From Bacteroidales bacterium (GTDB lineage Bacteria > Bacteroidota > Bacteroidia > Bacteroidales > VadinHA17): a DNA stretch of 64,000 bases. Below are positions 28,693-43,517 of this stretch, one piece after another (positions within the stretch are counted from its first letter, which is position 1; the number at the start of each line of letters is the position of its first letter). The position numbers were made by a program, and so were the translations under genes. The stretch lies in assembly GCA_035299385.1 (NCBI GenBank), contig DATGWQ010000075.1, forward strand, positions 11,633 through 75,632. Reading direction: 5' to 3'. Below the pieces are notes generated by a model. The model saw nothing but the letters and a program-made list of their open reading frames with translations. It searched no databases and was not told where the DNA came from.

Positions 28693-28733
28693 TGCGCCGG
28701 AATTCCCCTCCCCGGAGGGGGCAGGGGTGGGTT
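28689..28733 (+). repeat. 45-nt conserved element, copy 2
   Basis: gcatgtgcgccggaattcccctccccggagggggcaggggtgggtt. Direct repeat of 26838-26882. Its 3' end overlaps the stop codon of the minus-strand gene 28732..29493. Confidence 0.8.
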
Positions 28734-29493
28734 ATTGCTGTAAGACCTTAATTCCAAGCAAATCCATTACCCCGTTGATGAATGTCAACGGATGCACCGG
28801 GTTTCCGGGGACGTAAAGATCAATCTGATGTTCCTCTAAAAAGCTCCTGTCGAGCGCCGGGCTGCCGGCAAAAATCCCGCCGCTGATCGCATCGGTTCCG
28901 GCAAGAATTATTATACGCGGCGAGGGTATTGCTTCCCATGTGAGCAGGAGAGCCTCTGCCATGTTCTTCGAAATGGGCCCGGTAATCACAATCCCGTCAG
29001 CATGCCTTGGCGAGGCTACAAACTCGATGCCGTATCTTCCCATATCGAAATTGACGTTGCCCGCGGCATTCAGCTCCATTTCGCAGCTGTTGTCGCCACC
29101 GGCAGAGACCTGCCTGAGCTTCAGCGATCCCCTGAAAAGTTTCCTTATCTCCTTCCTGACAAGTTCAGGATCAACGATAATATCCTGTTCCGGCCCCTCT
29201 GCAATGATAAGCCTTTTGCGCTCATTAGTGGCAAACCTGTAGCTGGTTGTAAATTGGATCTTTTCAGGAAAGAGCCTTGCACATTCACCGCAAAAAACAC
29301 ATTTTCCAAGGTCTATACTGACAGGTGCGGTTGATATTGCATCGGTGGGACAACACCCCCCCAAAGCTTTTTCATCCACCTTAACGCTACTGATTACCGG
29401 CAGTCCCCTGAATATCCCGGGGACCCTGGCTTTGGACAGGTCGGGAATGTATTGTTTTCCCTGGTGATATAATATTTTGAGCGTGTTCAGCAT
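28732..29493 (-). CDS. Fused ferredoxin-like (HyfH/HycF-type) plus NuoB/HycG-like small-subunit homolog with degenerate FeS ligands
   Basis: 253-aa ORF. The N-terminal part has GGCCPTDAI and CVFCGECARLFP. The C-terminal part aligns by eye to NuoB/HycG (ASPRHADGIVITGPISKNM). The expected Cys positions read GGDNSCEME, GTDAISGG and PGNPVHP. Confidence 0.7.
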   Translation of the reverse strand: MLNTLKILYHQGKQYIPDLSKARVPGIFRGLPVISSVKVDEKALGGCCPTDAISTAPVSIDLGKCVFCGECARLFPEKIQFTTSYRFATNERKRLIIAEGPEQDIIVDPELVRKEIRKLFRGSLKLRQVSAGGDNSCEMELNAAGNVNFDMGRYGIEFVASPRHADGIVITGPISKNMAEALLLTWEAIPSPRIIILAGTDAISGGIFAGSPALDRSFLEEHQIDLYVPGNPVHPLTFINGVMDLLGIKVLQQ

Positions 29494-29502
29494 ATTTTCT
29501 TT

Positions 29503-30996
29503 CTAAAGATCATGCCCGCAATATGACAGGTTGAAGCTTTTATTGCAGACAGGGAAATCTGAAATCTCGTTGTATCTTACGGCAAGGGCAAGGGCCAGCC
29601 AGTTATGGAAGGATGGATCTTTCACCCTGTAAACTTTAATTTCGCCATCAGAGTCAGTAATTGCCGCATGGCAGGTCTCCCCTCTCCAGCCTTCATTCAT
29701 CGAAATTGCGAATGAATCCGGCTTCGGATTTAAACTGGCTTCACCAGCTGGATCCGGCAAACTGCTGATCAGCTTTCTCACGTAAGCAATTGATTGCAGG
29801 GTCTCTTCCTTCCTTATCTGCACCCTTGAATAAACGTCCCCATGATGCTTGATTACAGGCTTATGATCCAGTTCCGGATAAAGTCCGTACGGATGCGACA
29901 CTCTGATATCTCTTTCGAGGGCATTCATCCTGGCAGCCATTCCGACGGTACCAATCGAAAGCAGTTGTTCATAACTGAGGGCGCCGGTCCTCTCGAATCT
30001 CGAAAGTGCACTGGGAAGTTTCGAAACCTCCCTGTTCATTTCGATGAAATCGGGCTCGAAATTATCAAGTACTGAATTCAGCCTGTCAGCAAGCTCATTA
30101 TTGAAGGCATAAGCATTGTATCCCGGCCTTATCAATCCTTTTCCCAGCCTGTTCCCGCACCATTCCTGCATGAAATTGATTACCGGCGTACGGAGTCTTC
30201 CGAATACCGCGCTGCCGAGCTGATAGGCGATGTCCGTGCAAAGCGCGCTCAGGTCACCCGTGTGAACAGCAATTCTTTCAAGTTCCTGCGCCAGTGTACG
30301 CGCAAAAAGTACTTCCCTCTGCTGCTTTACCCCCGAAAGCGCTTCCGCCAGGAAAGCATATGATGATGCATGTCCCGCGACGCTGTCCCCTGCAATTGAT
30401 TCGGAAAGTACAATTCTCTGGATCGCTTTCTTCTTTTCGAGGAAAAGATTTTCAATCCCCCGGTGCTGGTAGCCAAGCTGTATTTCGAGATGAAGTATCT
30501 GTTCACCCTTGCACACAAACCTGAAATGACCAGGTTCGATTATCCCGGCATGAACAGGCCCCACTCCCACTTCATGCAGCTCCTCACTGTCTATCCTGAA
30601 AAACGGATAGTCGTACATTGAAAGTTTTTTATCGAACCTGTTTTCAGCATACCGGGCCGGTTTGAGCCACGGGTGATCAGAATAATTCAGCCCGAAGCTC
30701 TCATTCAAAACCCTCTCGAATTTCTCAAAATTGAAATTCACCGATGAAAATGATTCCAATGCTGAATCCTGTTCTGCAAGCGCAGAAGAAACCAGTATGT
30801 TATGATTCCGGTCATCGGCAATGCAGCATACAAGCTTTATATGACCCCCTTCATGATATCCAAAATATAATAGGCAATGTCTCTCCGGGTGATCTGTCAT
30901 AAGATCGAGATTTGCTTTCCTGAACTCGCCGTAAGGCATGACAGGTATCAGTGCAACACCCGCGGACTCATTATTATATATAGTTAAAAAGCTCAT
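29503..30996 (-). CDS. NuoC-NuoD / HycE(HyfG)-like large-subunit homolog lacking the canonical NiFe cysteine motifs
   Basis: 497-aa ORF. NuoC-like N-terminus, then GPVHAGIIEPGHFRFVCKGEQILHLEIQLGYQHRGIE (group-4 hydrogenase/NuoD signature). The L1 position reads SESIAGDSVAGH rather than CGICxxxH. The C-terminus reads DFPVCNKSFNLSYCGHDL rather than DPCxxC. Confidence 0.75.
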   Translation of the reverse strand: MSFLTIYNNESAGVALIPVMPYGEFRKANLDLMTDHPERHCLLYFGYHEGGHIKLVCCIADDRNHNILVSSALAEQDSALESFSSVNFNFEKFERVLNESFGLNYSDHPWLKPARYAENRFDKKLSMYDYPFFRIDSEELHEVGVGPVHAGIIEPGHFRFVCKGEQILHLEIQLGYQHRGIENLFLEKKKAIQRIVLSESIAGDSVAGHASSYAFLAEALSGVKQQREVLFARTLAQELERIAVHTGDLSALCTDIAYQLGSAVFGRLRTPVINFMQEWCGNRLGKGLIRPGYNAYAFNNELADRLNSVLDNFEPDFIEMNREVSKLPSALSRFERTGALSYEQLLSIGTVGMAARMNALERDIRVSHPYGLYPELDHKPVIKHHGDVYSRVQIRKEETLQSIAYVRKLISSLPDPAGEASLNPKPDSFAISMNEGWRGETCHAAITDSDGEIKVYRVKDPSFHNWLALALAVRYNEISDFPVCNKSFNLSYCGHDL

Positions 30997-30998
30997 TG

Positions 30999-32429
30999 TC
31001 AGTTTGGCAAAATACTTACAACATCCCTGATCAGCCTGACAAAAACATCAGGAGGATTAAGACCAAGCCAGACAGCAGCGGCAAGAAGCAGGTACTGCGA
31101 AAGCGATTCCCATGGGCTGGTCGCCTGAACAGCGCTGTCATCAAAACCATTTGCAGGTATGAAAAGTATCCTCATTATGTTTTTTCCGAATGCATAAATG
31201 ATGATCGTGAGGAGCAGAAGAACAAGAACAAGCAAAAGAATATGATTGCCTTCAAAGAGTGACCTGAAAATAAGGAATTCACTCACGAACAGCCCTGAGG
31301 GAGGCATCGCAGCAGCACAGACAAACCCGGCAAGCAGTACAATTGCACCGGCAGAATTGTATTTGAAATAATTCCCGGTGTCTTCCATGTTTTTGCTTCC
31401 GAAAACCCTGTAAACCTGGTTGAACTGGAAGAACAGCGATGACTTCACAAAAGCATGCAGAACGATATGCAGTATTGCTGCATAATAACCGATGCCGCCT
31501 GCAGCAATGCCGAGCATAACAATGCCCATATGCTCGATGCCTGAATAGGCGAACATCCTTTTGATATTTGTAACCCTCGACATGTACACTGCAGCAACAA
31601 AAACTGACAGCACCGCGGCGACGATGATCACAAGATTCGCCCAGTTATGAAGGCTTGTAGATGAGATAACGGCATAAAATCTGAAGACGCCGGCAAAGCC
31701 AAGATTCATCAGCACGCTGGCAAGAAGTGCGCCTGCAGGAGCGGGAGCCTTGTCCTTTGCGTCGATACCGGCCGTGTACATCGGCACAAGTCCGAGCTTT
31801 GCGGTAAAGCCTGTGAATATGAACAGGAACGCAAGCCTTAACCAGAATGGGTTCAGCCTGTCCCTCGATGCCATCAGGTTGCTGAATGAAAGATCCCGGG
31901 AACCTGCACCCTGAAGAGATAAACTGAGGAAGAGAATCCCGATAAAGACAAATGTGATGCTTATTGCGCAAATGAAGATGTATTTCCATGTCCCTTCAAG
32001 CGCCAGCTTGTTCCTGTGATGATAGATAAGCGCCGAAGCTGACAGCGTGGTAAGCTCGGTAAATATCCATATCACGGCGATGTGATTCGCGAGATAACCT
32101 GCCGTAATGGAAGAAATCAGGACTATCAATGCAGTAAAATAAATTGCCCTTGACTGAGTTGTGCCTGAATGCCTTTTGATGTAAAGCCAGCTGTGAAACA
32201 CTGCAGGAATGACTATTATGCTGAGCGTGACAAGAAGCAGGATCCCGAGTGAATCAAAGGTGAAATAGGTGAATACGGTTTCATTGTACGACATGCATGC
32301 CCATACAGTGAAGCCGGCTTGCAGCAAAGTAAAAAGAATAACAAGAATATAGTTGGTTTTGGTCTTCCTGTTTATGAAAACCAGCCCGGCAATAAGGTAA
32401 GATGCTATAAGGTATGCTGCAATCATCAT
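30999..32429 (-). CDS. Antiporter-like membrane subunit (HyfF / NuoN-NuoM family)
   Basis: 476-aa polytopic ORF. Proton_antipo_M-type segments (FTGFTAKLGLVPMYTAGIDAKDKAPAPAGALLASV, FAYSGIEHMGIV, HAFVKSSLFF). Confidence 0.8.
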   Translation of the reverse strand: MMIAAYLIASYLIAGLVFINRKTKTNYILVILFTLLQAGFTVWACMSYNETVFTYFTFDSLGILLLVTLSIIVIPAVFHSWLYIKRHSGTTQSRAIYFTALIVLISSITAGYLANHIAVIWIFTELTTLSASALIYHHRNKLALEGTWKYIFICAISITFVFIGILFLSLSLQGAGSRDLSFSNLMASRDRLNPFWLRLAFLFIFTGFTAKLGLVPMYTAGIDAKDKAPAPAGALLASVLMNLGFAGVFRFYAVISSTSLHNWANLVIIVAAVLSVFVAAVYMSRVTNIKRMFAYSGIEHMGIVMLGIAAGGIGYYAAILHIVLHAFVKSSLFFQFNQVYRVFGSKNMEDTGNYFKYNSAGAIVLLAGFVCAAAMPPSGLFVSEFLIFRSLFEGNHILLLVLVLLLLTIIIYAFGKNIMRILFIPANGFDDSAVQATSPWESLSQYLLLAAAVWLGLNPPDVFVRLIRDVVSILPN

Positions 32430-32435
32430 TTCATT

Positions 32436-33068
32436 TTAAAAATCCTTCAGGTTGCTCAGCTGATCCACATCCGCATCCCTGAACACATCGCCGATCTTGT
32501 TCAGGAAAATACCCAGTATCAGCACACTCGCAAACACGTCGAGCATCACTCCGAGGTTGACAAGCCCGGGCATCTCATTGCCCACAGCCAGTGATAATAC
32601 GAAAACACCGTTTTCTATCATCATATAACCCATCACATGAGTTATGATCTTTTTTCTTGAAGCTATTAAGTACAACCCTGTGAAAAGTGTGGACAGGGAA
32701 ACAATGAAGAAGAGCTTGTCAAGGTTTGTATCCTTTACCGAACCTGCAAGCAGCACCGTAACAACCACGATCAGTGTTGTGATCAGCAGAGATATGAAAT
32801 TGGGCAGATAGGGCTCTGCATCCCTCGTGATTTTATTTCTCTTTATCAGGTAACCGAGAAATACCGGTACTGCCACAGCCTTGAAGACAACCGTCTCCAG
32901 AAGGATCAGTACCAGGTTGACCGTATTCATTTCGGACAGTTGCATGAAGGCAACCGAAAACAGCAGTAAACCCTGAAGCGCCAGCACTCTCACATAGGTG
33001 ATGATCCTGTTTGCAATTGAGACATAAAACAGTGTTATTATAAATATTATCAGTAAAACGTCTGTCAT
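32436..33068 (-). CDS. Small polytopic membrane subunit (HyfE-like)
   Basis: 210-aa ORF with about 6-7 TM helices. It sits at the HyfE position between HycD-like and HyfF-like genes. Called from position and hydrophobicity only. Confidence 0.55.
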   Translation of the reverse strand: MTDVLLIIFIITLFYVSIANRIITYVRVLALQGLLLFSVAFMQLSEMNTVNLVLILLETVVFKAVAVPVFLGYLIKRNKITRDAEPYLPNFISLLITTLIVVVTVLLAGSVKDTNLDKLFFIVSLSTLFTGLYLIASRKKIITHVMGYMMIENGVFVLSLAVGNEMPGLVNLGVMLDVFASVLILGIFLNKIGDVFRDADVDQLSNLKDF

Positions 33069-33079
33069 TCTGGCATTGA

Positions 33080-33991
33080 TTATGCAAATTTCCCGAGAAC
33101 GAGCAATGCTCCCAGGAAGATTATGAAACTAACTGATGAAAGTGCGAGGATAAACTGTGGATTATGGCTCATCCTGAAACGGGCCATGAACGATTCTATT
33201 AATCCCGCAGTAACGGCAAACATTAGCTGGATGCCGATAAATACCGGGACAGCAACCGCAAGTTGCAGCCCGGTTATGAAGAAATTTGCTATAAGTGCGC
33301 CGTAGATAGCAAACTTCAGATAACCGGCCGTAAGTATAAGTCCGAGATCGAACCCGCTGTTATCGAGTATCATCACCTCGTGGACCATTGTAAGCTCGAG
33401 GTGTGTTTTCGGATCATCGACAGGCATCCTGCTGTTCTCGATCATGGCGATCATTATCAGCACGAATGCAGCCAGGCCACCGAGCAGGTAGGTCACATAT
33501 GAACCCAGGTGTAGGCTGGCAAAAATTTCCCGGAACGATGCATGTCCTGAGATAAGCGCGAATGATCCGATGAGCACAAAGAAAGCAGGCTCGGCAAAGA
33601 GCGAGTACAAAGCTTCCCTGCTTGCCCCCATTCCCTCGAAGCTGCTGCCCGTATCCATTGCAGCAATGATGCTGAAGAATTTTCCCAATGCCAGCATGTA
33701 TGCAAAAAAAACAAAATCACCGTCAAAGCTCATTATCCCTTTTTCACCGCTGAAAGGAATTACAAGGGCGGCCATCAAAACCGTGCTAATGTAAATTGAA
33801 GGTGCAATCCTGAAAATAACGCCGGTCGTGTCGCTTATGACAGCTCCCTTCCTGAATAACCTTATGACATCCTTTACCGGCTGGATAATTCCGGGCCCTT
33901 TTCTGCCTGATGCAAGGCTTTTTGTCCGGTTCACAGTGCCTGTGAAGAAAACTGCGGAAAATAATATCAGCGTTAAACTCAGCATTGTCAT
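33080..33991 (-). CDS. NuoH / HycD(HyfC)-like membrane subunit
   Basis: 303-aa polytopic ORF. N-terminal region ..GRKGPGIIQPVKDVIRLFRKG.. and ..SSFEGMGASRE.. fit the NADHdh (NuoH/HycD) family. Its ATG overlaps the upstream stop (ATGA at 33988-33991). Confidence 0.75.
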   Translation of the reverse strand: MTMLSLTLILFSAVFFTGTVNRTKSLASGRKGPGIIQPVKDVIRLFRKGAVISDTTGVIFRIAPSIYISTVLMAALVIPFSGEKGIMSFDGDFVFFAYMLALGKFFSIIAAMDTGSSFEGMGASREALYSLFAEPAFFVLIGSFALISGHASFREIFASLHLGSYVTYLLGGLAAFVLIMIAMIENSRMPVDDPKTHLELTMVHEVMILDNSGFDLGLILTAGYLKFAIYGALIANFFITGLQLAVAVPVFIGIQLMFAVTAGLIESFMARFRMSHNPQFILALSSVSFIIFLGALLVLGKFA

Positions 33992-36024
33992 AAAGATTTT
34001 AAGATATGAAGAGCCGACATTATCTTATCCCAGAGCAGCGGAAGCAGCAGGACGGTTGTAATAAAGATGATACCATAAAGAATGTACCGCTGCAGCCTCC
34101 CGTTCTGAAGAAAGCGGAAAGCATCAGTGATCCGGTTGATGAGCTTCAGGGATCTGTCAATCAGAACCTTTTCAACCTTGTCGTAGGGATGCGTCTCATA
34201 ATGCTTTTCACCCGGGAAAATTTCAGTTACTTCATCTTCGTGCTTTTCAATTTCGAGCACAGGCCTGGCCAGCTTCGAATATGTGCGCACATATGATGTT
34301 GCCGTGTACTGCAGCTTGCTGTCAGCAGCAGGATAACCGCATCCCCATGTCGGGCCTGTCCTGACCTCCGATTTCCTCGTGGCAACCTTCCTTATGCCGA
34401 TGATGAGAAGGACAAGGACAATGAACAACGCTGAGAGCCTGCTGATGCTGGTAAGGGAATCCAGGGCTTCGATCCTTGCAAAACGGGTGCTGACGGAGCC
34501 ACCGGCTGTCAGAAGATTCACAGGCTGCTTCAATGCCCCGATGAAGAATGAAGGGAACAAACCGATAAGTATGATAAGCCCTCCGGTAAAATACATCGGA
34601 ATAAGGCCGCTTTTTGAAGTTTCTGTAATGTTACCGTAATCGGAACGTGCGGTGCCGAGGAAGACTATGCTGAAAGCTTTCGTAAAGCAAAGTATGGCGA
34701 GCCCGCCGATAAGCGCCAGTCCCGTCAGTGCGAAAACGACTGCAACCTGCGAGATCACTCCTGCACTGAACAGCCAGTTGTAGAGTGAGCCATAGATGAT
34801 AAATTCCGAAATAAAACCATTGAGTGGCGGCAGCCCGCATATTGCAAGGGCTGCCAGAAGAAAGAGCAAGGCAGTAGATGGCATTTTTTTCATTATTCCT
34901 CCCAGCTTTTCAATATTCATCGAATGTACTGCCTGCAGGATATTTCCCGCGCTGTAAAACAGCAGTGATTTGAACAAAGAATGATTGAGCGTATGAAGAA
35001 GGGCGCCGGAAAAACCAAGCACAGCCATCCAGGTATTGCCTGTTCCCATGCCGATGCAACCTGCACCGATGCCAATACCTATAATGCCGATGTTTTCAAT
35101 ACTGTGGTAAGCCAGAAGACGCTTAAGATCATGCTGAATTGTGGCAAGCATAACCCCATACACACCCGAAACCAGTGAAATGACAAGGATAAAACATCCG
35201 GCAGTGAACCAGTCTACCTTCATCACCAGCAGAATCCTGAGAATCCCGTAAATGCCTATTTTTATAACAACGCCCGACATTATTCCTGAAACATGCGAAG
35301 GCGCTGCAGGATGTGCAAGCGGCAGCCAGGTATGGAATGGTATAAAGCCCGCTTTCAGCGCAAAACCTGCAAAGAAGAGGATGAAGAGCGCGGTGCCGTC
35401 GAGAGAGGGACGTGACGAAGAATACTGAGTTATTGCATCAAAATCATATGACCCTGCCTTAACTGCATAATACATAAAGCCGAGCATAAGAAGGACAATG
35501 CTGATATGAGACTGGACAAGGTAATTGATGCCCGCTTTTATCACAGACGGATTGCTGCTTTCAAATATCACGAGGATGAAAACTGCAAGAGCCATCACCT
35601 CCCATAAAAGAAGGAAGATGAAGCTGTTTCTCACCAGGCATACTCCGACAAGCGAAAAATGAACAAGGATGAAAGCAATTGTGTGAAGGGTTATGGCATT
35701 TTTCCTCTCACTGTATTTCCTCATGTAGTTGAAGCCATAAAAGGCTCCTGTAAGCATGGTGAAATTGATAACAAGGATGAACCATGCTGACAACGAATCC
35801 AGCTCAACACTTACCGGGCCAAACATTGCCGGTCCCGCAAGATCGGCACTGAAAGGAACGGAGATGAGTGATTTAAAGGAAAAAAACGACGTTACCGCAG
35901 ACAGGATGACTATTGCCGAAAGTGCAACAAGACCTTTTGCTCCAACCTTTTTCAGAAGTATAATTGAAACAATGGAGATAAAAAGAACAGCAATAAGTGC
36001 ATTTACCCAGCCTGCAAAGTTCAT
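33988..36024 (-). CDS. Antiporter-like membrane subunit (HyfB / NuoL family)
   Basis: 678-aa polytopic ORF. WEVMALAVFILV, FAGFALKAGFIPFHTWLPLAHPAAPSHVSGIMSGV, LAYHSIENIGII and HSLFKSLLFYSAG are Proton_antipo_M hallmarks. It is the first gene of the minus-strand cluster. Confidence 0.8.
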   Translation of the reverse strand: MNFAGWVNALIAVLFISIVSIILLKKVGAKGLVALSAIVILSAVTSFFSFKSLISVPFSADLAGPAMFGPVSVELDSLSAWFILVINFTMLTGAFYGFNYMRKYSERKNAITLHTIAFILVHFSLVGVCLVRNSFIFLLLWEVMALAVFILVIFESSNPSVIKAGINYLVQSHISIVLLMLGFMYYAVKAGSYDFDAITQYSSSRPSLDGTALFILFFAGFALKAGFIPFHTWLPLAHPAAPSHVSGIMSGVVIKIGIYGILRILLVMKVDWFTAGCFILVISLVSGVYGVMLATIQHDLKRLLAYHSIENIGIIGIGIGAGCIGMGTGNTWMAVLGFSGALLHTLNHSLFKSLLFYSAGNILQAVHSMNIEKLGGIMKKMPSTALLFLLAALAICGLPPLNGFISEFIIYGSLYNWLFSAGVISQVAVVFALTGLALIGGLAILCFTKAFSIVFLGTARSDYGNITETSKSGLIPMYFTGGLIILIGLFPSFFIGALKQPVNLLTAGGSVSTRFARIEALDSLTSISRLSALFIVLVLLIIGIRKVATRKSEVRTGPTWGCGYPAADSKLQYTATSYVRTYSKLARPVLEIEKHEDEVTEIFPGEKHYETHPYDKVEKVLIDRSLKLINRITDAFRFLQNGRLQRYILYGIIFITTVLLLPLLWDKIMSALHILKSL

Positions 36025-36193
36025 CTCAAATTCTCACGAGGGATTAAAAAAAACGGTGGCAAAGAAAAGAAAAAATATTCAATAGTGGGGTTAATGGTGA
36101 TAAAAACCTGTTCTCAGTAAAAATTATTCCACAAAAATCTTATTAGGATCCTGCATGTACAAGGGCAGGTTTCAGGTAAATTATCCACATCAT

Positions 36194-36235
36194 AAGAATT
36201 ACGTAATTAATTCCGTAATTAATTACGTAATTCTT
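36194..36235. promoter_or_regulatory. Perfect 19-bp inverted repeat (4-nt loop) carrying two TTACGTAA palindromes; operator or terminator candidate
   Basis: AAGAATTACGTAATTAATT ccgt AATTAATTACGTAATTCTT, checked base by base. It lies about 170 nt upstream of the Hyf-like cluster start (36024) and 17 nt downstream of the stop of gene 36252..37319. Confidence 0.6.
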
Positions 36236-36251
36236 TTAAGCGGGTAGTTTT

Positions 36252-37319
36252 TTATTTTCTTTTGATCGAATTGATAAAGGTGTATGAAATAGAAGCGCCC
36301 ATTTCAAACTTATTCATTTTCAATTCATTGTCCTGGTAATAATAATCATTCAGCAAAAATTCCTTCTGCCTTCCATTGCCGGGATTTGCCAGGCTCGTAA
36401 GGCCAAGGTAGTATCTCAGGTCAAGATATAATCCAACATTTTTTATCCTGTACCCGATCCCTGCACCCGCAAGCCATTCAAAATTCAACCTGTTCCGGGC
36501 TTCGATGACGTTTATGCCGTTGACATAATAAGTCATGTTTGCAGCATTGTCAGTCTTGCTTACGTTGGCAGTTGTTTTGGTCAGGTACAATGCACCCAGC
36601 CCTGAAGCAACATATGGTTTGAGATTCTTTGCAATCGTAAAATACTTTTTGGCATATACCGGGATCTCCACGAATTCTGGCCATTCCTGGTAATACAGGT
36701 CAAGGTCGGGTTCCCTTGAATAACTTTTATAATAGTAGGATGTCCACCACATCAGATCTGCGTTCAAAGAAATATTCCTGTCAAATTCTACCTCTGCCCA
36801 GCCGTAATATGAGAAAAAGTATGCTCCGGCTCCATATGGTTCGCTGTTCAGAGAACCATCCGGCAGAGAAAAGACCTTTGTCGTGTTGAAACCTGTCCAG
36901 AGAATGACATTCCTAATGCCAAGAGATAATGCGGGATGAATTTTATATTTCCTGATAAGCCGGTTGTATGATTCAAAATTATCATCTTCATTTAATTCAT
37001 AATGAGGATATTTATGAAGCAATACCTCCGCCGAACGCCTTGCCTGAAGCTCGTCAGGGATCTCGGTGTATGCTTTTGTCAGAAGCTCCAGGGCATGCTC
37101 CCTGTCCTTCCTTGCAAGATCCCTGTTATTCAATAATTTCTGAACCGAAGCGGTGCATTCCTCGTATAATCCCTGTTGATACAATTTTTCTGCATCGGCA
37201 AGTTTTGTTTTGGGATCCGGATTATAAAAGGTAACGGTCTGACTCTGAATGGAGAAACCATTGATCAGAAAGATCAACAGCAAGCATAAGCGTATATATC
37301 CAGAGTTATTTTGAATCAT
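36252..37319 (-). CDS. Secreted protein: TPR-like helical N-domain plus C-terminal outer-membrane beta-barrel-like domain
   Basis: 355-aa ORF. Signal peptide (LCLLLIFLINGFSIQSQ). Helical region (AEKLYQQGLYEECTASVQKLL..ALELLTKAY). Then alternating-hydrophobic, aromatic/Gly-rich strands (AGAGIGYRIKNVGLYLDLRYYLGL, FEMGASISYTF). It starts 5 nt after the upstream stop. Confidence 0.6.
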   Translation of the reverse strand: MIQNNSGYIRLCLLLIFLINGFSIQSQTVTFYNPDPKTKLADAEKLYQQGLYEECTASVQKLLNNRDLARKDREHALELLTKAYTEIPDELQARRSAEVLLHKYPHYELNEDDNFESYNRLIRKYKIHPALSLGIRNVILWTGFNTTKVFSLPDGSLNSEPYGAGAYFFSYYGWAEVEFDRNISLNADLMWWTSYYYKSYSREPDLDLYYQEWPEFVEIPVYAKKYFTIAKNLKPYVASGLGALYLTKTTANVSKTDNAANMTYYVNGINVIEARNRLNFEWLAGAGIGYRIKNVGLYLDLRYYLGLTSLANPGNGRQKEFLLNDYYYQDNELKMNKFEMGASISYTFINSIKRK

Positions 37320-37324
37320 ATAAA

Positions 37325-40159
37325 CTATCTTTTTTGGGTCAGTGTCGTATCGGAGATGATACCCGGTATCTTTTCACGTATCATATCAGCAAGCTTCATA
37401 TATGATGTTTCCCATATCCTTATGCTTTTATCGGATAATCCTGCGACCAGTTTGTCATCCTTTGTAAAAACAAGTGATCTCACCCGTCCGGGAAGGTTTT
37501 TAAAGTGCACCACTCCGCCGTATGTGTTATTCCTTGAAAAATACTCATCGACATAGAACAGGCTTATGGTTCTATCCCGGCTTGCCATAGCCAGCAGCTT
37601 ATTGTCATTGCTGAAAGCCATTTTGTCAATACCGGATTTATTCTGTTCCACCCGGTACTCAAACCGGACCGGATCTTTCCTGCTGAACACACCCATCGAT
37701 CCGGATTGATAACCGACTACGAGCTTCCTGCCTGCCATCCCCATTGATAAAGGTTTATCGTTAAAGGACGCCAGGTTCTCAGTTTTACCGTTCTTCATGA
37801 TATTTACTGATCCGTCACTGCAAGCATAAAATACTGTATCAGGACTGCAAAAAAGGACAGAAAGTACTTCTGAGGAAACCCGGAAGGTTTTCAATAAAAC
37901 GGGAGAATCTGATACATTCCATATTTTAATGATGCTGTCGTTAGCGCCTGTAACGAGGTACCTGCCACGATCACAAAAGTCAGCTGACCTGATGATTCCG
38001 CCTGATGGAATTTTGAAAGGTTCAAATCTGCCGGTTCCCATTTTAGTCAATTTCCATAAACTGATTTCACCGTTATCGCACTGGGTAAGAATGTTTTGAG
38101 ATACTCTGTCAATTTGAACAAACCTCACAGGTGAGCCTGTATTGAGCTGTTCGCTCCCCGATACTTTTCCGTCAGAAGTCCATCTGCAAAATTTGCCGTC
38201 AAGATCAGCGGTTGCGATAAATAAGGAATCATCAGCTATACTCCATATCTCAGATCCTGTTCCCGTAAAAACGGAATGTCTTGCACTGTCCGCGACTATC
38301 CATGCTTTATTCAGGGCTTCATAGATCACCGGGTCGTAATCCGGTCCACCATTGTCAAGGTTGTATTTATATGAAAGGTATGCCAGGGTGCAGCCTATTT
38401 TCGGAGTATTCTCCAGTGAGACGTTACTGAGTGAGCTCAGAGCCAGGTTCTGCGCTTTTGAAAGATTGCTCATCCTGGTGGATGCAGCTTCAGCTTCAAC
38501 AGCTTTCTGCCTTTCATGTTCTGCAACGTTCCGCTGTTCTGTGGCAATTCGTGCCTGTTCAGTTGATTCGATGGTCAGTTTTTCTGCAAGGCTCTTCTGC
38601 TGGATTGCGAGTTCTTTCTGTAAAAGAGCTTCCTTCCTCGACTGCTCGGACTGTGACTGTGCCACGAGGGCAATCTGCTCATTCTTCACTGCCAGGTCCT
38701 TTGACCGGACTGCTTCTTTTCTTGCTGAGTCAGCAACCATCATGGCCCTGACGGCAGAGTTCTTCTGCTGCTCGGCAATATCCTGCTGCACGACGGCATT
38801 CCGCTTTTCGCGCATCGCCCATATCGTAAAGAAAGAGAGTATGGCGATCAGCACAGCCGCTGAAATTATCATCGCATTCTGGCGGCGCCTTTTGGCCTTA
38901 TGAATTATTCTTTTGCTCTGGGAAATAAACTTTGTAAGCTTTTCATTCAGGAACAGCTTGTCCTCGTAAGGGGCAATATATTCCAGATCGTCTGAATTCA
39001 GGTAAAGGTTTCTTCGCTCGAAATTATTCCAGCTGTTTTCAATGAATTGCCTGATCTCCAGAAGCTCTTTTTCGACAAGGGTGATCTTTTCATATATGCA
39101 TGAAGCAAGACTGTCGTGACGAAGCTCGTATCTTCCGTGTTCATCCTTGTCGCGGAGGATCCTGAGCTTTATAAATTTCTGGATGAGGTCTTTCACCTTT
39201 TCATTTCCAAGCTCTTTCCCCAGGGTCCGGGTATATTCGATCACTTCATCCTCTGTTATCTGGTGCTTGGTGCCATGTACCGATACAAAAGATTTGAGGA
39301 TGACCAGGCCTGCATCAGGATCATCGAGCCTGGATATCTGCTCCTCGAGGAAAGCTCCAAGCAGGTCTTTCACATCGCCGATCTTTTCGGTATGTGCAAG
39401 GCTCAGCCTTATTACATCCTCATTCTCCTCAGAAGCTATCCTGAAAAGCTTGTCGAGATAGACCTGGAGGTAAGTCAGCTCGACCTCAGGATTGTCCGGG
39501 TTCAGTTTTTCCAGGATGATCTTTGACAGGCCCTCATCGGTTGCAATCCTGTTTACTTCACAGGGTCCCTCAATGGCTTTTGCAGCATTCTGCCTGGTCA
39601 TTTTCTCGATCCTTATCCTGTTATCGAGGAAATCAGGTATTATCTTTTCAAATTCCGTGAAACCGGCAAGATACTCCTCACGCATGGAGAAAATCAGCCG
39701 GCACTGGATATCCGAATCTATGATCTTCTTTACTGTCTGAATGAATTCCTCCCTTTCGGCACGGGACCCGAATATGAATACTTCCTCAAACTGGTCAAGA
39801 ATGAGAAAAATGGGTTTGAAATGATCGAGATAAACTGACCTGAGGAGCTTAAAGATGCTTTTCGAATTTTCACCGGGAATACTCGAAAGCATATTCCGTT
39901 TCAGCGATTCATAAAGGCTCAGGTTTATGTTCGATCCCCTCCTGATATTTACAGGGAGCCAGTCGGAATCGTTGAACTTGTTTGCAAGGCCGCAATTTAT
40001 CAATGATGATTTTCCGGTTCCTGAAATTCCGTATACAACAAGTATCCTGCTCTGAAAGACTCTTGAGTGAAGCTCTTCGATCTCATTGTCGCGGCCAAAG
40101 AAAACATTACGGTCTTCTTTGGAATAGCTGTCCAGGAATTTGAACGGGCTCTTTTTCAT
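37325..40159 (-). CDS. STAND-like P-loop NTPase, single TM helix, long coiled coil, C-terminal WD40 beta-propeller
   Basis: 944-aa ORF. FFGRDNEIEELHSRV..ILVVYGISGTGKSSLINCGL (Walker A) and PIFLILDQFEEVF (Walker B). TM at about aa 430-452 (KAKRRRQNAMIISAAVLIAILSFFTIWAMREKRN). About 110 aa Q/E/K/A-rich coiled coil. WD40-like blades (ISLWKL, IKIWNV, SIRIWET). Confidence 0.8.
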   Translation of the reverse strand: MKKSPFKFLDSYSKEDRNVFFGRDNEIEELHSRVFQSRILVVYGISGTGKSSLINCGLANKFNDSDWLPVNIRRGSNINLSLYESLKRNMLSSIPGENSKSIFKLLRSVYLDHFKPIFLILDQFEEVFIFGSRAEREEFIQTVKKIIDSDIQCRLIFSMREEYLAGFTEFEKIIPDFLDNRIRIEKMTRQNAAKAIEGPCEVNRIATDEGLSKIILEKLNPDNPEVELTYLQVYLDKLFRIASEENEDVIRLSLAHTEKIGDVKDLLGAFLEEQISRLDDPDAGLVILKSFVSVHGTKHQITEDEVIEYTRTLGKELGNEKVKDLIQKFIKLRILRDKDEHGRYELRHDSLASCIYEKITLVEKELLEIRQFIENSWNNFERRNLYLNSDDLEYIAPYEDKLFLNEKLTKFISQSKRIIHKAKRRRQNAMIISAAVLIAILSFFTIWAMREKRNAVVQQDIAEQQKNSAVRAMMVADSARKEAVRSKDLAVKNEQIALVAQSQSEQSRKEALLQKELAIQQKSLAEKLTIESTEQARIATEQRNVAEHERQKAVEAEAASTRMSNLSKAQNLALSSLSNVSLENTPKIGCTLAYLSYKYNLDNGGPDYDPVIYEALNKAWIVADSARHSVFTGTGSEIWSIADDSLFIATADLDGKFCRWTSDGKVSGSEQLNTGSPVRFVQIDRVSQNILTQCDNGEISLWKLTKMGTGRFEPFKIPSGGIIRSADFCDRGRYLVTGANDSIIKIWNVSDSPVLLKTFRVSSEVLSVLFCSPDTVFYACSDGSVNIMKNGKTENLASFNDKPLSMGMAGRKLVVGYQSGSMGVFSRKDPVRFEYRVEQNKSGIDKMAFSNDNKLLAMASRDRTISLFYVDEYFSRNNTYGGVVHFKNLPGRVRSLVFTKDDKLVAGLSDKSIRIWETSYMKLADMIREKIPGIISDTTLTQKR

Positions 40160-40168
40160 TTCAACATA

Positions 40169-41251
40169 TCATAATGCGCCCGGTGATATAAGCGAAACCA
40201 TCTGCCTGAATTCGGTCAGGAGTATGTCGTAATTCTTCAATGACCTGAGATCCACTTTCTCCGTTACTTCGGTTCCCAGGTACATCAGCTGGTCATTCCG
40301 GAATTTGGAATACATGAAGATGTCCTTTTTAATATCGAATTTCTCCTTTGAATCGAGTATTTCCGTGCTTGTGTCAATGATCAGCGGAGAAAGATTTAGA
40401 TAAGTGTCGATTGATTTTATACTCTTCAGGAGAAGCACTGAGTGGCTGTCTGTATAAGTTGATTCGTCAAACTCATTAGCCTTGAAATCGGAATCGGAGC
40501 TGTTGAGCAGATCGAAGATATGATGGAATGAAGCTTTTGTCATTTTCGATTTGAAGACTTTGATTTCCTTCACTGAAACCAGCCTGTATTTTGCAAGGAA
40601 TGATATCCTGGATAAAATAAAGGTCAGCTTTTCTTCATATTCGACGCATCTCTTTTCGATTTCCTCCTGGGTAAGGTTGATCTGGTAATGGCCTATTTCG
40701 TTCCGTTCCGGGACCCAGAAATCCAGCGCGGCATAAAATTTATCATCACAGCAGCCGGAAAGCTCGGGCATAAACCATTCTATCTTCTGGGAAGAAAACA
40801 TGTTTCCCATAGCCCTTATCATCCAGGAATAATTGCCGAGGCTAAGAACAAGGAACCTGTTTTTGAATTCCTTAGCAAAGCTTTCACTGATCTTTATGCT
40901 GCCTTCCTCGCACATTTTTGAAAGCTGCGAGAGCATAACGAATGACAGGAACTGCATTGACCTCTCAATAGTTTTGAAAATCTGGTCAAGGCGCATCCTG
41001 TCGAGCTGCCGCATGGACCCTGAGAAGAGCCTCCTGAGCTCCACTCCTACCGGCCACGGAAAATTCTTGATAATCAGGTCTGCAAGTATCCTGTAATCAG
41101 GCAGGTCGCCTTCATCTTCATCGGTAAGGACCATTTTTGACAGAGATGCCTTATGTTTCAGCATTTCATCAAAAACTTTCCTTATAAGGTCTTCATTTAT
41201 GCTTGCCATCCCCTTATTATGACTAGCTAAATTTATAACTTTTTTATTCAA
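40169..41251 (-). CDS. Hypothetical 360-aa protein, first gene of the STAND cassette (no recognisable domain)
   Basis: The ORF-track start at 41251 is TTG; an ATG alternative lies at 41209 (MASINEDL). No signal peptide or TM. Helical N-half, mixed C-half. Its stop lies 9 nt before the NTPase start. Confidence 0.6.
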   Translation of the reverse strand: MNKKVINLASHNKGMASINEDLIRKVFDEMLKHKASLSKMVLTDEDEGDLPDYRILADLIIKNFPWPVGVELRRLFSGSMRQLDRMRLDQIFKTIERSMQFLSFVMLSQLSKMCEEGSIKISESFAKEFKNRFLVLSLGNYSWMIRAMGNMFSSQKIEWFMPELSGCCDDKFYAALDFWVPERNEIGHYQINLTQEEIEKRCVEYEEKLTFILSRISFLAKYRLVSVKEIKVFKSKMTKASFHHIFDLLNSSDSDFKANEFDESTYTDSHSVLLLKSIKSIDTYLNLSPLIIDTSTEILDSKEKFDIKKDIFMYSKFRNDQLMYLGTEVTEKVDLRSLKNYDILLTEFRQMVSLISPGAL

Positions 41252-41383
41252 CCAAGCAAATTAGATGATTTAATTGATTTTCTGAAAAAAAATTCCCTTG
41301 CACTGCACCCCTGCCCCCAGGGGCATAGCATCAAACTAAAAGATCGCGATTTTATGTATTAGGTTGATTATCATTCTGTTATT

Positions 41384-41410
41384 CTCCCTCCTTTTGAAGG
41401 AGGGGTGGCC
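41384..41410 (+). repeat. GC-rich hairpin element (CCCTCCTT ttg AAGGAGGG + GTGG tail)
   Basis: ctccctccttttgaaggaggggtggcc. 8-bp stem. Same family as the elements at 26848 and 28699. Confidence 0.5.
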
Positions 41411-41579
41411 AGACTGAAATCTTTTTACTTCAGGAAGAATGCAATACTGGACGGGGTGGTTGATTATCAGAAGGAATCCCCAGTTACATGTAGGATTATA
41501 GCAGGTCTATAAAAGAAGTGTATAAAGATTAGCTTAAAAAATAAGGGGAGGGCAAGACCTCAGAAACAATGAGATCTCA

Positions 41580-41623
41580 CCCTTTCCCTTATTGTTTTAA
41601 AGGGAAAGGGCAGGGATAGGGTT
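41580..41623 (+). repeat. GC-rich hairpin element with 11-bp stem and CAGGGATAGGGTT tail
   Basis: CCCTTTCCCTT attgtttta AAGGGAAAGGG cagggatagggtt. The tail resembles GCAGGGGTGGGTT of the 45-nt element. Confidence 0.6.
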
Positions 41624-41669
41624 AAGATGAGAGATATTTTTTCTTAAATTTCCCCTCAAATGATCCAGA

Positions 41670-43517
41670 ATGGATGCTCAGAAAAGAATAAGAACAGCTG
41701 TTGATAAGGTCAATGAAGCCGTCTGGGCCCAACGCTACAGCGATCCGGGATCACTGCAGGGCACAATCAGCAGCAATCTTGCAAAGGCCGAAAAAGCAGG
41801 ATATGAGAGGGGAATAGCCTATGCAAATCTTAATACAGCTTCTGTTCTCTTTCACTCCTCACAGAACGATCAGGCATTAATACATCTGAATAAAGCTCTT
41901 CAGTGGTTCAGCAGGCACGAGAATGAAAACGGATACGTGAGGGCCATCCTCCTGCAGGGCAATGTACATGAAAGCTATGGTGACTATGAACAAACACTTA
42001 CGCTGTGGCTCCTCGCCCTGAAAAAATCGAAACAGATAAATTACAGGGAAGCAGAATCTGAAGCCTGCAACCAGCTTGGGATTGTCTATTTCAGGCTTGC
42101 AGATTATGAGAAATCGCTCGATTACCTGACGACAGCACTGAAAATAAGGGAAAAGGAAAATGATGAAAACGGGATGGCCTCTTCCCTCAACAGGATCGGA
42201 ATGGTGCTGAGACAAACGAAAAAATATTCCGAATCTCTTCAATATTATTTTAAAAGTCTTGAGATAAGGGAAAAGAACAGGCAATTCTCGGCCATTCTCT
42301 GGACAATGCTTGGCATAGCGAGCACCTGCGAGGAATCAGGAAATCTTGATGAAGCGCTGGAATATTACACAAAGGGAATGGAGAGCAAGGATCTCCCCTG
42401 TTTTGTACAATGCCTTATGGGAGCCGGAAGGATCCATAGCCGGAGGGGTGAAAATGTGCTAGCGGAAGGAATGCTTGAAGAGGCATCAAAGAAAGCTGAG
42501 CAATCGGGCACACTATATCTTCTTGCTGATGCATATTATTCGCTTGCAGCACATTATGAAAGAACAGGAAAGTTTTCCGGGGCGCTTGACCATTACAAAT
42601 TATACCAGAAAACGAAGGAATCACAGCTTAGTGAGGAATCGCAGCGAAAACTCAGGAACATAGAGATTTCGCATGCTATTGAAAAATCAGAGCAGGAAAA
42701 AGAGATCTTCCGCTTGCGGAATGTCGAGCTGAAGCAGGCATATGACATAATCGAGGAGAAGAACAAGGACATAACCTCAAGCATAAACTATGCCAGCAGG
42801 ATCCAGGGTGCGATACTCCCCAGGTTATCGGATATAAAGGGCCTTTCTGGGCATGTTTTCGTACTTTATCTGCCCAAGGATATCATAAGCGGGGATTTTT
42901 ACTGGTTTTCAAGGATGAAGGATCAGATAGTCCTCGTTGCCGGCGACTGTACAGGTCACGGTGTTCCCGGGGCCCTGATGAGCATGCTTGGTATTTCTTT
43001 CCTTGAAGAGATAGTGAACCGGCAGGGGATCAATGAACCAAATGTGATCCTCGATGAACTGGGAAAGGAGATCAGGAGAGCACTCAGGCAGAAATCAGGT
43101 GAAACGAAAGACGGGATGGACATGTCGCTCTGCCGCATTGATACGAAATCGGGCAGGCTTCTGTTTTCAGGGGCTAATAACAATCTTTACCTTGTGAGGG
43201 ATAACCAGCTTATCGAGATCAAGTCCGACAGGATGGCTGTTGGCTTTAATGAGGATGTCAACAGGAAATTCAGCCTGCAGGAGGTTAACCTTGCCGGCGG
43301 GGACATGCTGTACATGTTCTCAGATGGCTTTGCCGACCAGTTCGGCGGCGAGCATAACAAAAAATACAAATATTCAGCTTTCAAGGAATTCCTTCTGGGT
43401 ATCCATAATCAGCCGCTCAGCGAGCAGAAATTATGCCTGAGGAAGGAGTTTTTTTCCTGGAAAGCTGAATATGAGCAGGTGGACGATGTGCTCGTAATGG
43501 GCTACAGGTTCAAATAG
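41670..43517 (+). CDS. TPR-repeat plus coiled-coil plus PP2C/SpoIIE-type serine phosphatase (RsbU-like)
   Basis: 615-aa ORF. N-terminal about 300 aa of TPR-like repeats (..LGIVYFRLADYEKSLDYLTTALKI.., ..IGMVLRQTKKYSESLQYYFKSLEI..). Then YASRIQGAILP, GDFYWF, VAGDCTGHGVPGALMS, SDGFADQFG and QVDDVLVMGYRF (SpoIIE motifs). Confidence 0.85.
   Translation: MDAQKRIRTAVDKVNEAVWAQRYSDPGSLQGTISSNLAKAEKAGYERGIAYANLNTASVLFHSSQNDQALIHLNKALQWFSRHENENGYVRAILLQGNVHESYGDYEQTLTLWLLALKKSKQINYREAESEACNQLGIVYFRLADYEKSLDYLTTALKIREKENDENGMASSLNRIGMVLRQTKKYSESLQYYFKSLEIREKNRQFSAILWTMLGIASTCEESGNLDEALEYYTKGMESKDLPCFVQCLMGAGRIHSRRGENVLAEGMLEEASKKAEQSGTLYLLADAYYSLAAHYERTGKFSGALDHYKLYQKTKESQLSEESQRKLRNIEISHAIEKSEQEKEIFRLRNVELKQAYDIIEEKNKDITSSINYASRIQGAILPRLSDIKGLSGHVFVLYLPKDIISGDFYWFSRMKDQIVLVAGDCTGHGVPGALMSMLGISFLEEIVNRQGINEPNVILDELGKEIRRALRQKSGETKDGMDMSLCRIDTKSGRLLFSGANNNLYLVRDNQLIEIKSDRMAVGFNEDVNRKFSLQEVNLAGGDMLYMFSDGFADQFGGEHNKKYKYSAFKEFLLGIHNQPLSEQKLCLRKEFFSWKAEYEQVDDVLVMGYRFK

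Follow-up and report, generated by a model that had tools for sequence, protein, structure and literature searches.

What does a STAND NTPase act through when it carries no effector of its own, and on which side of the membrane does its sensor lie? These questions are raised by a three-gene cassette on the minus strand of a 64,000-nucleotide (nt) stretch of DNA from an uncultured Bacteroidales bacterium (assembly GCA_035299385.1, 82-kb contig DATGWQ010000075.1). We refer to this whole stretch as the window and number positions from its first letter. An earlier inspection of the letters and their open reading frames (ORFs), here termed the sequence-only reading, had placed three minus-strand ORFs at 40169-41251 (gene 1), 37325-40159 (gene 2) and 36252-37319 (gene 3). 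These coordinates hold, as do the short spacers that it reported, 9 nt between genes 1 and 2 and 5 nt between genes 2 and 3. It had offered two alternatives for the NTPase encoded by gene 2: either gene 1 supplies the effector in trans, or the encoded proteins form a trans-envelope sensing device. Both ideas found support in our analysis, and they do not exclude one another. We propose that the products of the locus make up a STAND switch reaching across the envelope, which would turn on a HEPN-like effector in trans, a reading to which we give an even chance of being correct.

An nSTAND1 NTPase with an obligate partner

Judged by its sequence, gene 2 is a bona fide nSTAND1 NTPase. Its match to PF20703 scored 148.5 bits against a cut-off of 27.1, spanned profile positions 1-341 of 379 and included intact Walker A and Walker B motifs (Table 1). 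The match begins at residue 5, and no N-terminal effector or effector-associated domain (EAD) was found in the protein, in agreement with the sequence-only reading that the NTPase starts directly at its P-loop domain. The single transmembrane helix and the WD40 repeats described at the same time were likewise recovered, along with a segment predicted to be a helical or coiled-coil stalk. The suggested kinship with Avs-type systems was not: among PADLOC models, gene 2 matched only mad8 (E 0.0085), over the P-loop region, and no Avs model.

Related loci were collected with a 14-sequence alignment of gene 1, taking one genome per species; 181 relatives were found, and 80 loci were kept. All but one of these (79 of 80) are titled as metagenome-assembled genomes (MAGs) of uncultured Bacteroidales or Bacteroidota, from fens, groundwater, sediments and similar sources. 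One locus, L003 (JBLNAO010000168.1), is labelled a Chloroflexota MAG instead; its operon and flanks are those of the window, with proteins 86-90% identical, and it is probably a mis-binned contig.

In 76 of 82 loci, an nSTAND1 gene stands behind the gene 1 homologue in the same orientation; the remainder are truncated or interrupted. The pairing holds in distant branches in which gene 1 identity has fallen to 24-30% (L089-L091); the NTPases there match a local nSTAND1 hidden Markov model with E values of 1e-127 to 1e-134, and have the same helix flanked by lysine and arginine at about residue 443. It also holds where gene 1 is part of a longer protein. A fusion to an AraC-type domain and a cyclase (L083) is followed by nSTAND1, WD40 and outer-membrane protein genes, and nSTAND1 also stands behind two CHAT fusions (L084 and L085). 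Gene 1 is the obligate partner of the NTPase.

The pair has multiplied within genomes. One 3.5-Mb genome contains at least four separate systems (L017, L068, L070 and L081), and two to three tandem NTPase genes stand behind one gene 1 in seven loci (L031, L035, L044, L049, L065, L070 and L071). In five others (L033, L056, L069, L072 and L073), one to three ATPase genes of the AAA_14 plus DUF4143 type separate the gene 1 homologue from the NTPase gene; these may be passengers or extra components.

The sensor is predicted to lie in the periplasm

All full-length NTPase homologues, distant branches included, have a single transmembrane helix at about residues 430-445. Among 68 full-length homologues, the 15-residue flanks of this helix contain on average 6.8 lysines and arginines on the N-terminal side and 3.5 on the C-terminal side, and the net charge is higher on the N-terminal side in 67. 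Following the positive-inside rule, the NTPase is therefore predicted to be cytoplasmic, and everything after the helix periplasmic. Next comes a predicted helical or coiled-coil stalk. Across about 24 orthologous loci, its proline-free stretch measures 133±1 residues, despite a sequence identity of only 53%. As a helix, the stalk would be about 20 nm long, similar in scale to the periplasm. The charge bias and the fixed stalk length both favor the trans-envelope topology that the sequence-only reading had raised.

The domain beyond the stalk is a WD40 domain, of one or two propellers, in the orthologous group and in 24 of 35 divergent paralogues. These C-terminal, superstructure-forming repeats would act as the sensor, and their location is predicted to be periplasmic. 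Across 22 orthologous operons, mean pairwise identity falls from the inside outward: 77% for gene 1, 71% for the NTPase, 60% for the transmembrane helix, 53% for the stalk, and 50%, 48% and 43% for the gene 3 barrel, the gene 3 helical domain and the WD40 domain, the last being the most variable part. Paralogue expansion has kept the cytoplasmic part constant and the periplasmic part variable.

A HEPN-like motif in the partner protein

The ORF of gene 1 opens at a TTG codon (41251) and would encode 360 amino acids (aa). More than 100 homologues cover only ORF residues 15-360, and the NCBI record is 346 aa long; we therefore take the ATG at 41209 as the probable true start. The gene then spans 40169-41209, and the upstream gap, earlier put at 418 nt, becomes 460 nt (41210-41669), extending to a divergent phosphatase gene. 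The other long gap that had been noted, 227 nt on the 3' side of gene 3 (36025-36251), stands.

Gene 1 had been described as lacking recognizable motifs. No match to it was found in Pfam, NCBIfam, PADLOC or PHROGs, EAD and Death-like Pfam families included, and the family profile matched no PDB sequence. The protein is not motif-less, however, as the family alignment revealed three family-wide motifs, FPWPxGxELRRL, RNx3H and YLNLSPxIIDT. The family comprises more than 1060 homologues in a database clustered at 90%, and 580 representatives at 50% clustering, 259 of them with E<1e-10. Gene 1 has no hydrophobic segment, and its product is predicted to be cytoplasmic. In the AlphaFold model (pLDDT 88, pTM 0.90), a helical domain (residues 1-207) is followed by a beta-rich domain (209-312) and a C-terminal helix. 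We propose that the first motif, FPWPVGVELRRL in the window, is a structural or NTPase-docking element.

The second motif is a candidate HEPN catalytic motif, the form of which is reportedly Rx4-6H (Anantharaman et al. 2013). R169 and N170 are nearly invariant in the family alignment, each at least 90% conserved, and H174 completes a motif of the Rx4-6H form with a polar residue after the arginine. The model places it between two long helices of the all-alpha 1-207 domain. When 39 family members were scanned one by one against Pfam, HEPN families were the commonest weak matches. At least eight members matched one of five such families: HEPN_RiboL-PSP (three members; best E 5.5e-4, 18 bits against a cut-off of 28), HEPN_Swt1 (two members), HEPN_Apea, Cas_Csm6_HEPN and HEPN_MAE_28990. 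In each match, the C-terminal part of the profile, which bears the motif, lay over the RNx3H region. A second, independent library gave a similar picture, with HEPN families making up six of the ten PADLOC families matched (RTasHEPN, CARF_HEPN, Csx1, Csm6, Cas13a and AbiV). Because all of these matches, in both libraries, were sub-threshold, we grade membership of gene 1 in the HEPN superfamily as probable, not established.

The gene 1 module often sits at the C-terminus of longer proteins, the N-terminal parts of which are an AraC-type helix-turn-helix (HTH) with or without a nucleotide cyclase (Guanylate_cyc), a CHAT domain or a caspase. We compared these with stand-alone forms, counting representatives that cover the motif region and defining a fused form by an N-terminal extension of at least 100 residues. 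RNx3-4H was present in 41 of the 57 stand-alone representatives and in none of the 62 with an extension, while the two other family-wide motifs were retained in both classes. Such complementarity would be expected if the motif provided the output of the stand-alone protein and could be dispensed with once a different output domain had been added; what remains of the module would be a constant coupling scaffold. Because its HEPN-like motif is lost exactly where another effector domain is fused, gene 1, the NTPase's neighbor in most loci, is the best candidate for the effector in trans that the sequence-only reading had postulated. The complementarity predicts an RNase activity that depends on R169 and H174 and is triggered by NTPase oligomerization. 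The family would be a new one, with no Pfam entry and no PDB relative, and would represent the coupling and effector module of nSTAND1 NTPases.

Two distant loci (L086:7346-9818 and L087:90-2562) encode a caspase protein whose C-terminal half is a gene-1-like domain lacking the motif. The gene lies directly after an EACC1 gene (PF19953), and the gene that follows encodes a 231-aa ABC-type ATPase, not an nSTAND1 protein. This arrangement links the gene 1 family to EACC1-caspase systems, in which a protease activates the EACC1 pore. Taken with the caspase and CHAT fusions and the motif-fusion complementarity, it argues for a conflict-system ancestry. Gene 1 itself was considered as an EACC1, a small single-transmembrane domain, and was rejected on its length of 346 aa, the lack of a hydrophobic segment and the lack of a PF19953 match. 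In another branch (L091:638-1534), a 298-aa protein with a caspase-like YFSGHAG sequence and no precomputed Pfam match is encoded upstream of a distant stand-alone gene 1 homologue, and may be a separately encoded protease.

An outer-membrane protein joins the operon in one clade

Gene 3 begins with a signal-peptide-like hydrophobic N-terminus (residues 1-27). Four to five modelled helices (residues 36-123) would form a short TPR-like periplasmic domain, and residues 130-348 a beta-barrel (AlphaFold pLDDT 88.6). The protein matched PF13568 (OMP_b-brl_2; 4e-9, 37.2 bits against a cut-off of 27), and Foldseek retrieved the barrels of OmpA (transmembrane domain), Ail, OmpX and NspA with E values of 6e-10 to 7e-7. 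Signal peptide, above-threshold family match and modelled fold agree in identifying an OmpA/OmpX-like barrel; an outer-membrane protein with a barrel-like C-terminus had been surmised.

The sequence-only reading had asked whether the trio is conserved as a unit. This is true of genes 1 and 2, and not of gene 3, which is present in 26 of the 82 loci, always directly after the NTPase gene. The loci that have it are essentially the clade in which gene 1 is at least 73% identical to that of the window, with L047, L009 and L083 in addition, and its homologues number 73, whereas gene 1 has more than 1000. It is therefore an accessory that belongs to one clade and lies outside the conserved core. Within the 22 orthologous operons, pairwise distances of the WD40 domain and of the gene 3 helical domain were correlated (Spearman 0.73). 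With gene 1 and NTPase distances controlled for, a partial correlation of 0.49 was left, the highest among the pairs tested; as pairs are not independent, this covariation is only suggestive.

A proposed trans-envelope switch and competing explanations

What the analysis establishes is the gene architecture, the predicted topology, the linkage across the 82 loci and in distant branches, the paralogue pattern and the motif-fusion complementarity. The following scheme adds, as inference, how the proteins touch, what triggers the switch, that gene 1 cleaves RNA and what the system is for. Gene 2 would be anchored in the inner membrane, its ATP-binding nSTAND1 module exposed to the cytoplasm, and the helical stalk, with its fixed length of about 20 nm, would hold the WD40 propeller in the periplasm. 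In the window's clade, the propeller would dock on the TPR-like periplasmic domain of the gene 3 barrel. A change sensed at the propeller or the outer membrane would cause the NTPase modules to exchange nucleotide and oligomerize, as in other STAND proteins, thereby gathering copies of gene 1 by induced proximity. Once clustered, the divergent HEPN-like domains with their RNx3H motifs would assemble a composite active site of the kind usual in HEPN RNases, and so cleave RNA. The outcome would be either growth arrest, through abortive infection or in reply to an attack, or a regulated response to stress, and the TPR-SpoIIE phosphatase encoded next to the cassette probably tunes or relays the signal.

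Taken further, such a switch would be an NLR-like receptor that surveys the envelope, detecting damage to the outer membrane, contact-dependent attack or the adsorption or injection of a phage, and that fires an unrecognized family of HEPN-type RNases. A molecular-ruler stalk and a dedicated outer-membrane protein would hold the WD40 domain at the outer membrane, and ATP-driven oligomerization would carry the signal across the inner membrane. By analogy, this would be a prokaryotic counterpart of Ire1/RNase L logic, deployed as multi-paralogue receptor repertoires in environmental Bacteroidales. We regard this extension as doubtful. Since the composition is not that of an island, the flanks are housekeeping genes, no Avs model matched and gene 3 is an accessory, an immune role is no more than plausible by analogy.

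A number of observations weigh against the proposal. In close relatives, the locus is vertically inherited with housekeeping flanks, and when 114 non-redundant neighbor proteins were compared with PADLOC, each of the families listed (the first 25 of 90, among them PDC-S05, PDC-S23 and BrxH) was matched by a single member. Gene 1 is 63-86% identical across paralogues and species, which is unusually high for a toxin. Every HEPN profile match falls below its family threshold, the window's own gene 1 protein has no HEPN profile match, and 16 of the 57 stand-alone representatives do not have RNx3-4H. When the whole gene 1 model was compared with the PDB by Foldseek, no HEPN protein was among the 50 matches listed, the best of which had an E value of 0.16. 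Finally, gene 3 is absent from 56 of the 82 loci, and the outer-membrane link is therefore not general.

The same apparatus might instead serve non-immune signaling (envelope stress, nutrients, surfaces or development), with gene 1 as a non-catalytic adaptor or regulator and with output through the TPR-SpoIIE (PP2C) phosphatase or, elsewhere, through the fused AraC-type HTH or cyclase. We consider this possible. An orthologue of the phosphatase gene lies within 3 kb of the core in 17 of the 30 loci with adequate flanks, and in two gene orders, upstream and divergent in loci of the window's type and downstream in those we call type B; this recurrence suggests a functional link and a possible regulatory component. 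AraC HTH and Guanylate_cyc fusions are classic signaling outputs, and the fused locus L083 keeps the NTPase, WD40 and outer-membrane protein downstream. The strong conservation of gene 1, the housekeeping flanks and a HEPN assignment that is sub-threshold and without a structural match fit signaling as well. Yet the loss of the motif exactly in the fused forms (0/62 versus 41/57) argues that it has a function of its own, replaced there by other outputs, and the caspase and CHAT fusions and the EACC1 link point to conflict systems. Moreover, the phosphatase is missing from 13 of the 30 well-covered loci, and genes for partner switching through STAS or anti-sigma proteins were not observed in the loci.

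Two further explanations were weighed. Transmembrane effectors are common in bacterial immunity, and the helix of gene 2 could be a membrane-disrupting effector, or a mere anchor, in a conventional Avs-like anti-phage STAND protein whose WD40 domain senses a cytoplasmic phage protein. WD40 sensors are found in defense-associated STAND proteins (PMC13581612), and nSTAND1 is a conflict-system clade (PMC8195603). We nevertheless think this very unlikely: the helix is central, with its lysine/arginine cluster on the NTPase side in 67 of 68 homologues and a length-conserved stalk behind it, an arrangement in keeping with a type II membrane protein; a secreted outer-membrane partner is encoded in the operon; and neither a PADLOC Avs match nor a defense-island context was found. 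It is also improbable, in our view, that the cassette is not one system, genes 1 and 2 forming a pair and gene 3 being an ordinary small porin or OmpA-like protein that lies downstream by chance. Such a coincidence would account for its presence in only 26 of 82 loci, for its 73 homologues against the more than 1000 of gene 1 and for a barrel of the generic OMP_b-brl_2 fold. On the other side, gene 3 always follows the NTPase gene directly, on the same strand and after a short gap (5 nt here), within differing flanks that include those of L047, L009 and the AraC-fused L083; its helical N-terminal domain is family-specific, and its divergence tracks that of the WD40 domain.

To our knowledge, all characterized bacterial STAND and NLR-like receptors are soluble and sense cytoplasmic ligands. 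If the trans-envelope switch is real, this widespread clade, with its predicted periplasmic sensor connected to an outer-membrane protein, would bring the cell envelope within the reach of NLR-type sensing. If the locus serves housekeeping envelope signaling instead, it would represent a new signal-transduction architecture in Bacteroidota.

Comparison with known systems

Ire1 combines an extracytoplasmic sensor, one transmembrane helix, a cytosolic nucleotide-binding oligomerization module and a HEPN-type RNase that is switched on by induced proximity. By analogy, the window system would follow the logic of Ire1 and RNase L (KEN/HEPN), although here the ATPase is of the STAND type rather than a kinase, the RNase-like protein is separate, and there is no homology beyond a possible HEPN fold. 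With HEPN RNases more broadly (Csm6/Csx1, Cas13, AbiV, RiboL-PSP and Swt1), gene 1 shares an R-N-x3-H motif, placed by the model where two helices of an all-alpha domain meet in a loop, weak similarity to the motif-bearing part of several profiles and a proposed role as the output of a nucleotide-dependent sensor. It differs in that its matches are sub-threshold and without a PDB structural counterpart, and in that the motif is embedded in a two-domain protein with family-specific motifs.

A second analogy is with TolA/TonB-type proteins and with anti-sigma/TonB-transducer signaling in Bacteroidota. Gene 2 would resemble these as a single-pass protein with its N-terminus inside, a long periplasmic segment and a C-terminal globular domain facing an outer-membrane partner, and also in its paralogue expansion. 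In contrast to them, its cytoplasmic part is a STAND ATPase, not a short tail or an anti-sigma domain, and the window operon contains neither an ExbBD/TolQR motor nor a sigma factor.

The nSTAND1 clade was defined as the NTPase of conflict systems with displaceable effectors, and has been reported from some EACC1 systems (Kaur, Burroughs, Iyer, Aravind 2021, eLife, PMC8195603). The window locus is like these and Avs systems in combining nSTAND1 with C-terminal superstructure-forming repeats and in having several paralogues per genome; gene 1 relatives, moreover, carry the usual effectors, with displacement running from caspase and CHAT to cyclase. In the nSTAND1 conflict systems as described, the NTPase protein, or a neighbor with the same EAD, carries an N-terminal effector or EAD; gene 2 has neither, and its partner is an undescribed 346-aa family. 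The central transmembrane helix, which would put the gene 2 sensor outside the cytoplasm, and the outer-membrane protein added in one clade set the locus apart from conflict and Avs systems alike. Avs is a single soluble polypeptide with an N-terminal effector, whereas gene 2 has no effector and has a central transmembrane helix; the window locus also lacks a PADLOC Avs match and a defense-island context.

Two-gene EACC1-caspase systems (Kaur et al. 2020, PMC7159879; Evans et al. 2025, bioRxiv 10.1101/2025.11.14.688446) are related through the distant gene-1-like domain found at the C-terminus of the caspase after EACC1 (L086 and L087). The window, however, has neither an EACC1 gene nor a protease, and RNx3H is absent from those fused forms. 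STAND proteins diversified by diversity-generating retroelements (DGRs), with predicted periplasmic C-type-lectin sensors (Doré et al. 2024, PNAS, PMC10907252), provide a computational precedent for a variable STAND sensor that is predicted to be periplasmic. They differ in being NACHT or nSTAND1 proteins of multicellular bacteria with CLec/FGE sensors and DGRs, and in having no gene-1-like partner, WD40 domain or outer-membrane protein. This was the only study of membrane-spanning or periplasm-sensing STAND systems that we found, in a literature search of incomplete coverage. The sequence-only reading knew of no described system of this composition, and the searchable literature yielded none: neither a gene-1-like partner nor an operon of nSTAND1, transmembrane helix and WD40 plus outer-membrane protein was found described, although coverage was incomplete and absence is not proof.

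Flanks and features of the locus

The coordinates of the cassette, its motifs and the adjoining features are collected in Table 1.

Table 1. Features of the cassette and its surroundings (window positions; residue numbers refer to the encoded protein).
Feature	Position	Strand	Description
Three-gene cassette	36252-41251	-	ORF span; genes packed with short spacers
Gene 1	40169..41209	-	346 aa; HLP72084.1, NCBI name "hypothetical protein"
FPWPVGVELRRL (residues 50-61)	41027..41062	-	Gene 1 motif kept in stand-alone and fused forms
RNEIGH (residues 169-174)	40688..40705	-	RNx3H, candidate HEPN Rx4-6H catalytic motif; family alignment and sub-threshold profile matches
YLNLSPLIIDT (residues 270-280)	40370..40402	-	Beta-domain motif of gene 1, kept in all forms
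Gene 2	37325..40159	-	944 aa; HLP72083.1, NCBI name "AAA family ATPase"; nSTAND1, one transmembrane helix, helical stalk, WD40
nSTAND1 module (residues 5-352)	39104..40147	-	PF20703, E 5.3e-43
Walker A, GISGTGKS	40007-40030	-	Kept in 66/68 homologues
Walker B, FLILDQFEE	39782-39808	-	Kept in 64/68 homologues
Transmembrane helix (residues 429-449)	38813..38875	-	Hydropathy; only hydrophobic helix; preceded by KAKRRRQN
Predicted helical/coiled-coil stalk (residues 452-585)	38405..38806	-	134 residues, free of Pro and Gly, rich in A/Q/E/S/K
WD40 beta-propeller (residues ~640-925)	37385..38242	-	WD40 and beta-propeller Pfam matches; predicted periplasmic
Gene 3	36252..37319	-	355-aa ORF (annotated 343 aa); HLP72082.1, NCBI name "porin family protein"
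TPR-SpoIIE (PP2C, RsbU-like) phosphatase	41670..43517	+	615 aa; HLP72085.1, NCBI name "tetratricopeptide repeat protein"; Pfam TPR_12 and SpoIIE; divergent from gene 1
Intergenic region	41210..41669	.	Between gene 1 and the phosphatase gene; several GC-rich hairpins
Inverted repeat	36194..36235	.	Perfect, 19 nt; 16 nt 3' of the gene 3 stop

The cassette had looked more AT-rich than its flanks on hand-counted lines, and the magnitude of that difference was not borne out. Relative to the 41 ORFs of the window (mean GC 0.459, standard deviation 0.023), gene 1 has a GC content of 0.428 (z = -1.4), gene 2 of 0.451 (z = -0.35) and gene 3 of 0.413 (z = -2.1), and other genes in the window are as GC-poor. 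A recent horizontal-transfer island was ruled out by these values, which lie inside the window's spread, and by the shared flanks of the closest relatives. No mobile-element genes were seen.

Nor was the cassette found in a variable defense island, as had been suspected: its neighbors, judged from the genes that recur and not by a formal statistical test, are not defense genes, and its closest relatives share housekeeping flanks. Among close relatives, L001, L002/L007, L003 and L012 keep GFO/GH109 genes upstream, and all but L012 keep a hyf-like complex downstream. Genes for GGT, DNA alkylation repair, GH106/GH2/GH88, SDR, hyf-like and GFO proteins recur as neighbors. A strictly syntenic core locus was ruled out in turn by differing flanks in other type-A loci and by the several paralogues per genome. 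With shared flanks in close relatives only and non-defense neighbors, the locus is therefore neither a hot-swapped defense island nor a single fixed core locus.

Directly 3' of the cassette, on the minus strand (28732-36024), lie genes for proton-antiporter-like and NADH-dehydrogenase-like membrane subunits of a hyf/Mbx/Mrp-type complex. This cluster adjoins the cassette only in the closest relatives; a similar one is found upstream of the paralogous system in L053, L065 and L072. Type B loci have, in place of the outer-membrane gene, a convergent gene for a polytopic membrane protein of about 240-320 aa with four to eight hydrophobic segments (L029:11886-12767, L046:11772-12542, L064:11846-12763, L080:10163-11119, L082:11885-12616 and others). 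It bears repeated (K/R)xxHWPGAG motifs and a weak GldL_N match, and is usually followed by the TPR-SpoIIE gene.

The intergenic region between gene 1 and the phosphatase gene presumably contains the promoters of both; a sigma-70 promoter scan is uninformative for Bacteroidota, and an Rfam scan of the locus gave chance-level matches only. The syntenic spacer is only 135-156 nt long in L001 and L002, compared with 460 nt in the window. The extra sequence contains GC-rich hairpins, such as that at 41549-41583, and a CTCCCTCC...GGAGGG palindrome. A 25-nt match to the spacer palindrome occurs in L074 in two orientations, and apart from this hairpin no copies of the intergenic regions were found elsewhere in the window or the loci. 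The longer spacer may reflect a small inserted palindromic element. At the other end of the cassette, the inverted repeat 3' of gene 3 is built of three tandem 12-nt palindromic units, AATTACGTAATT / AATTCCGTAATT / AATTACGTAATT, and is probably the operon terminator, as an AT-rich hairpin, or a protein-binding operator.

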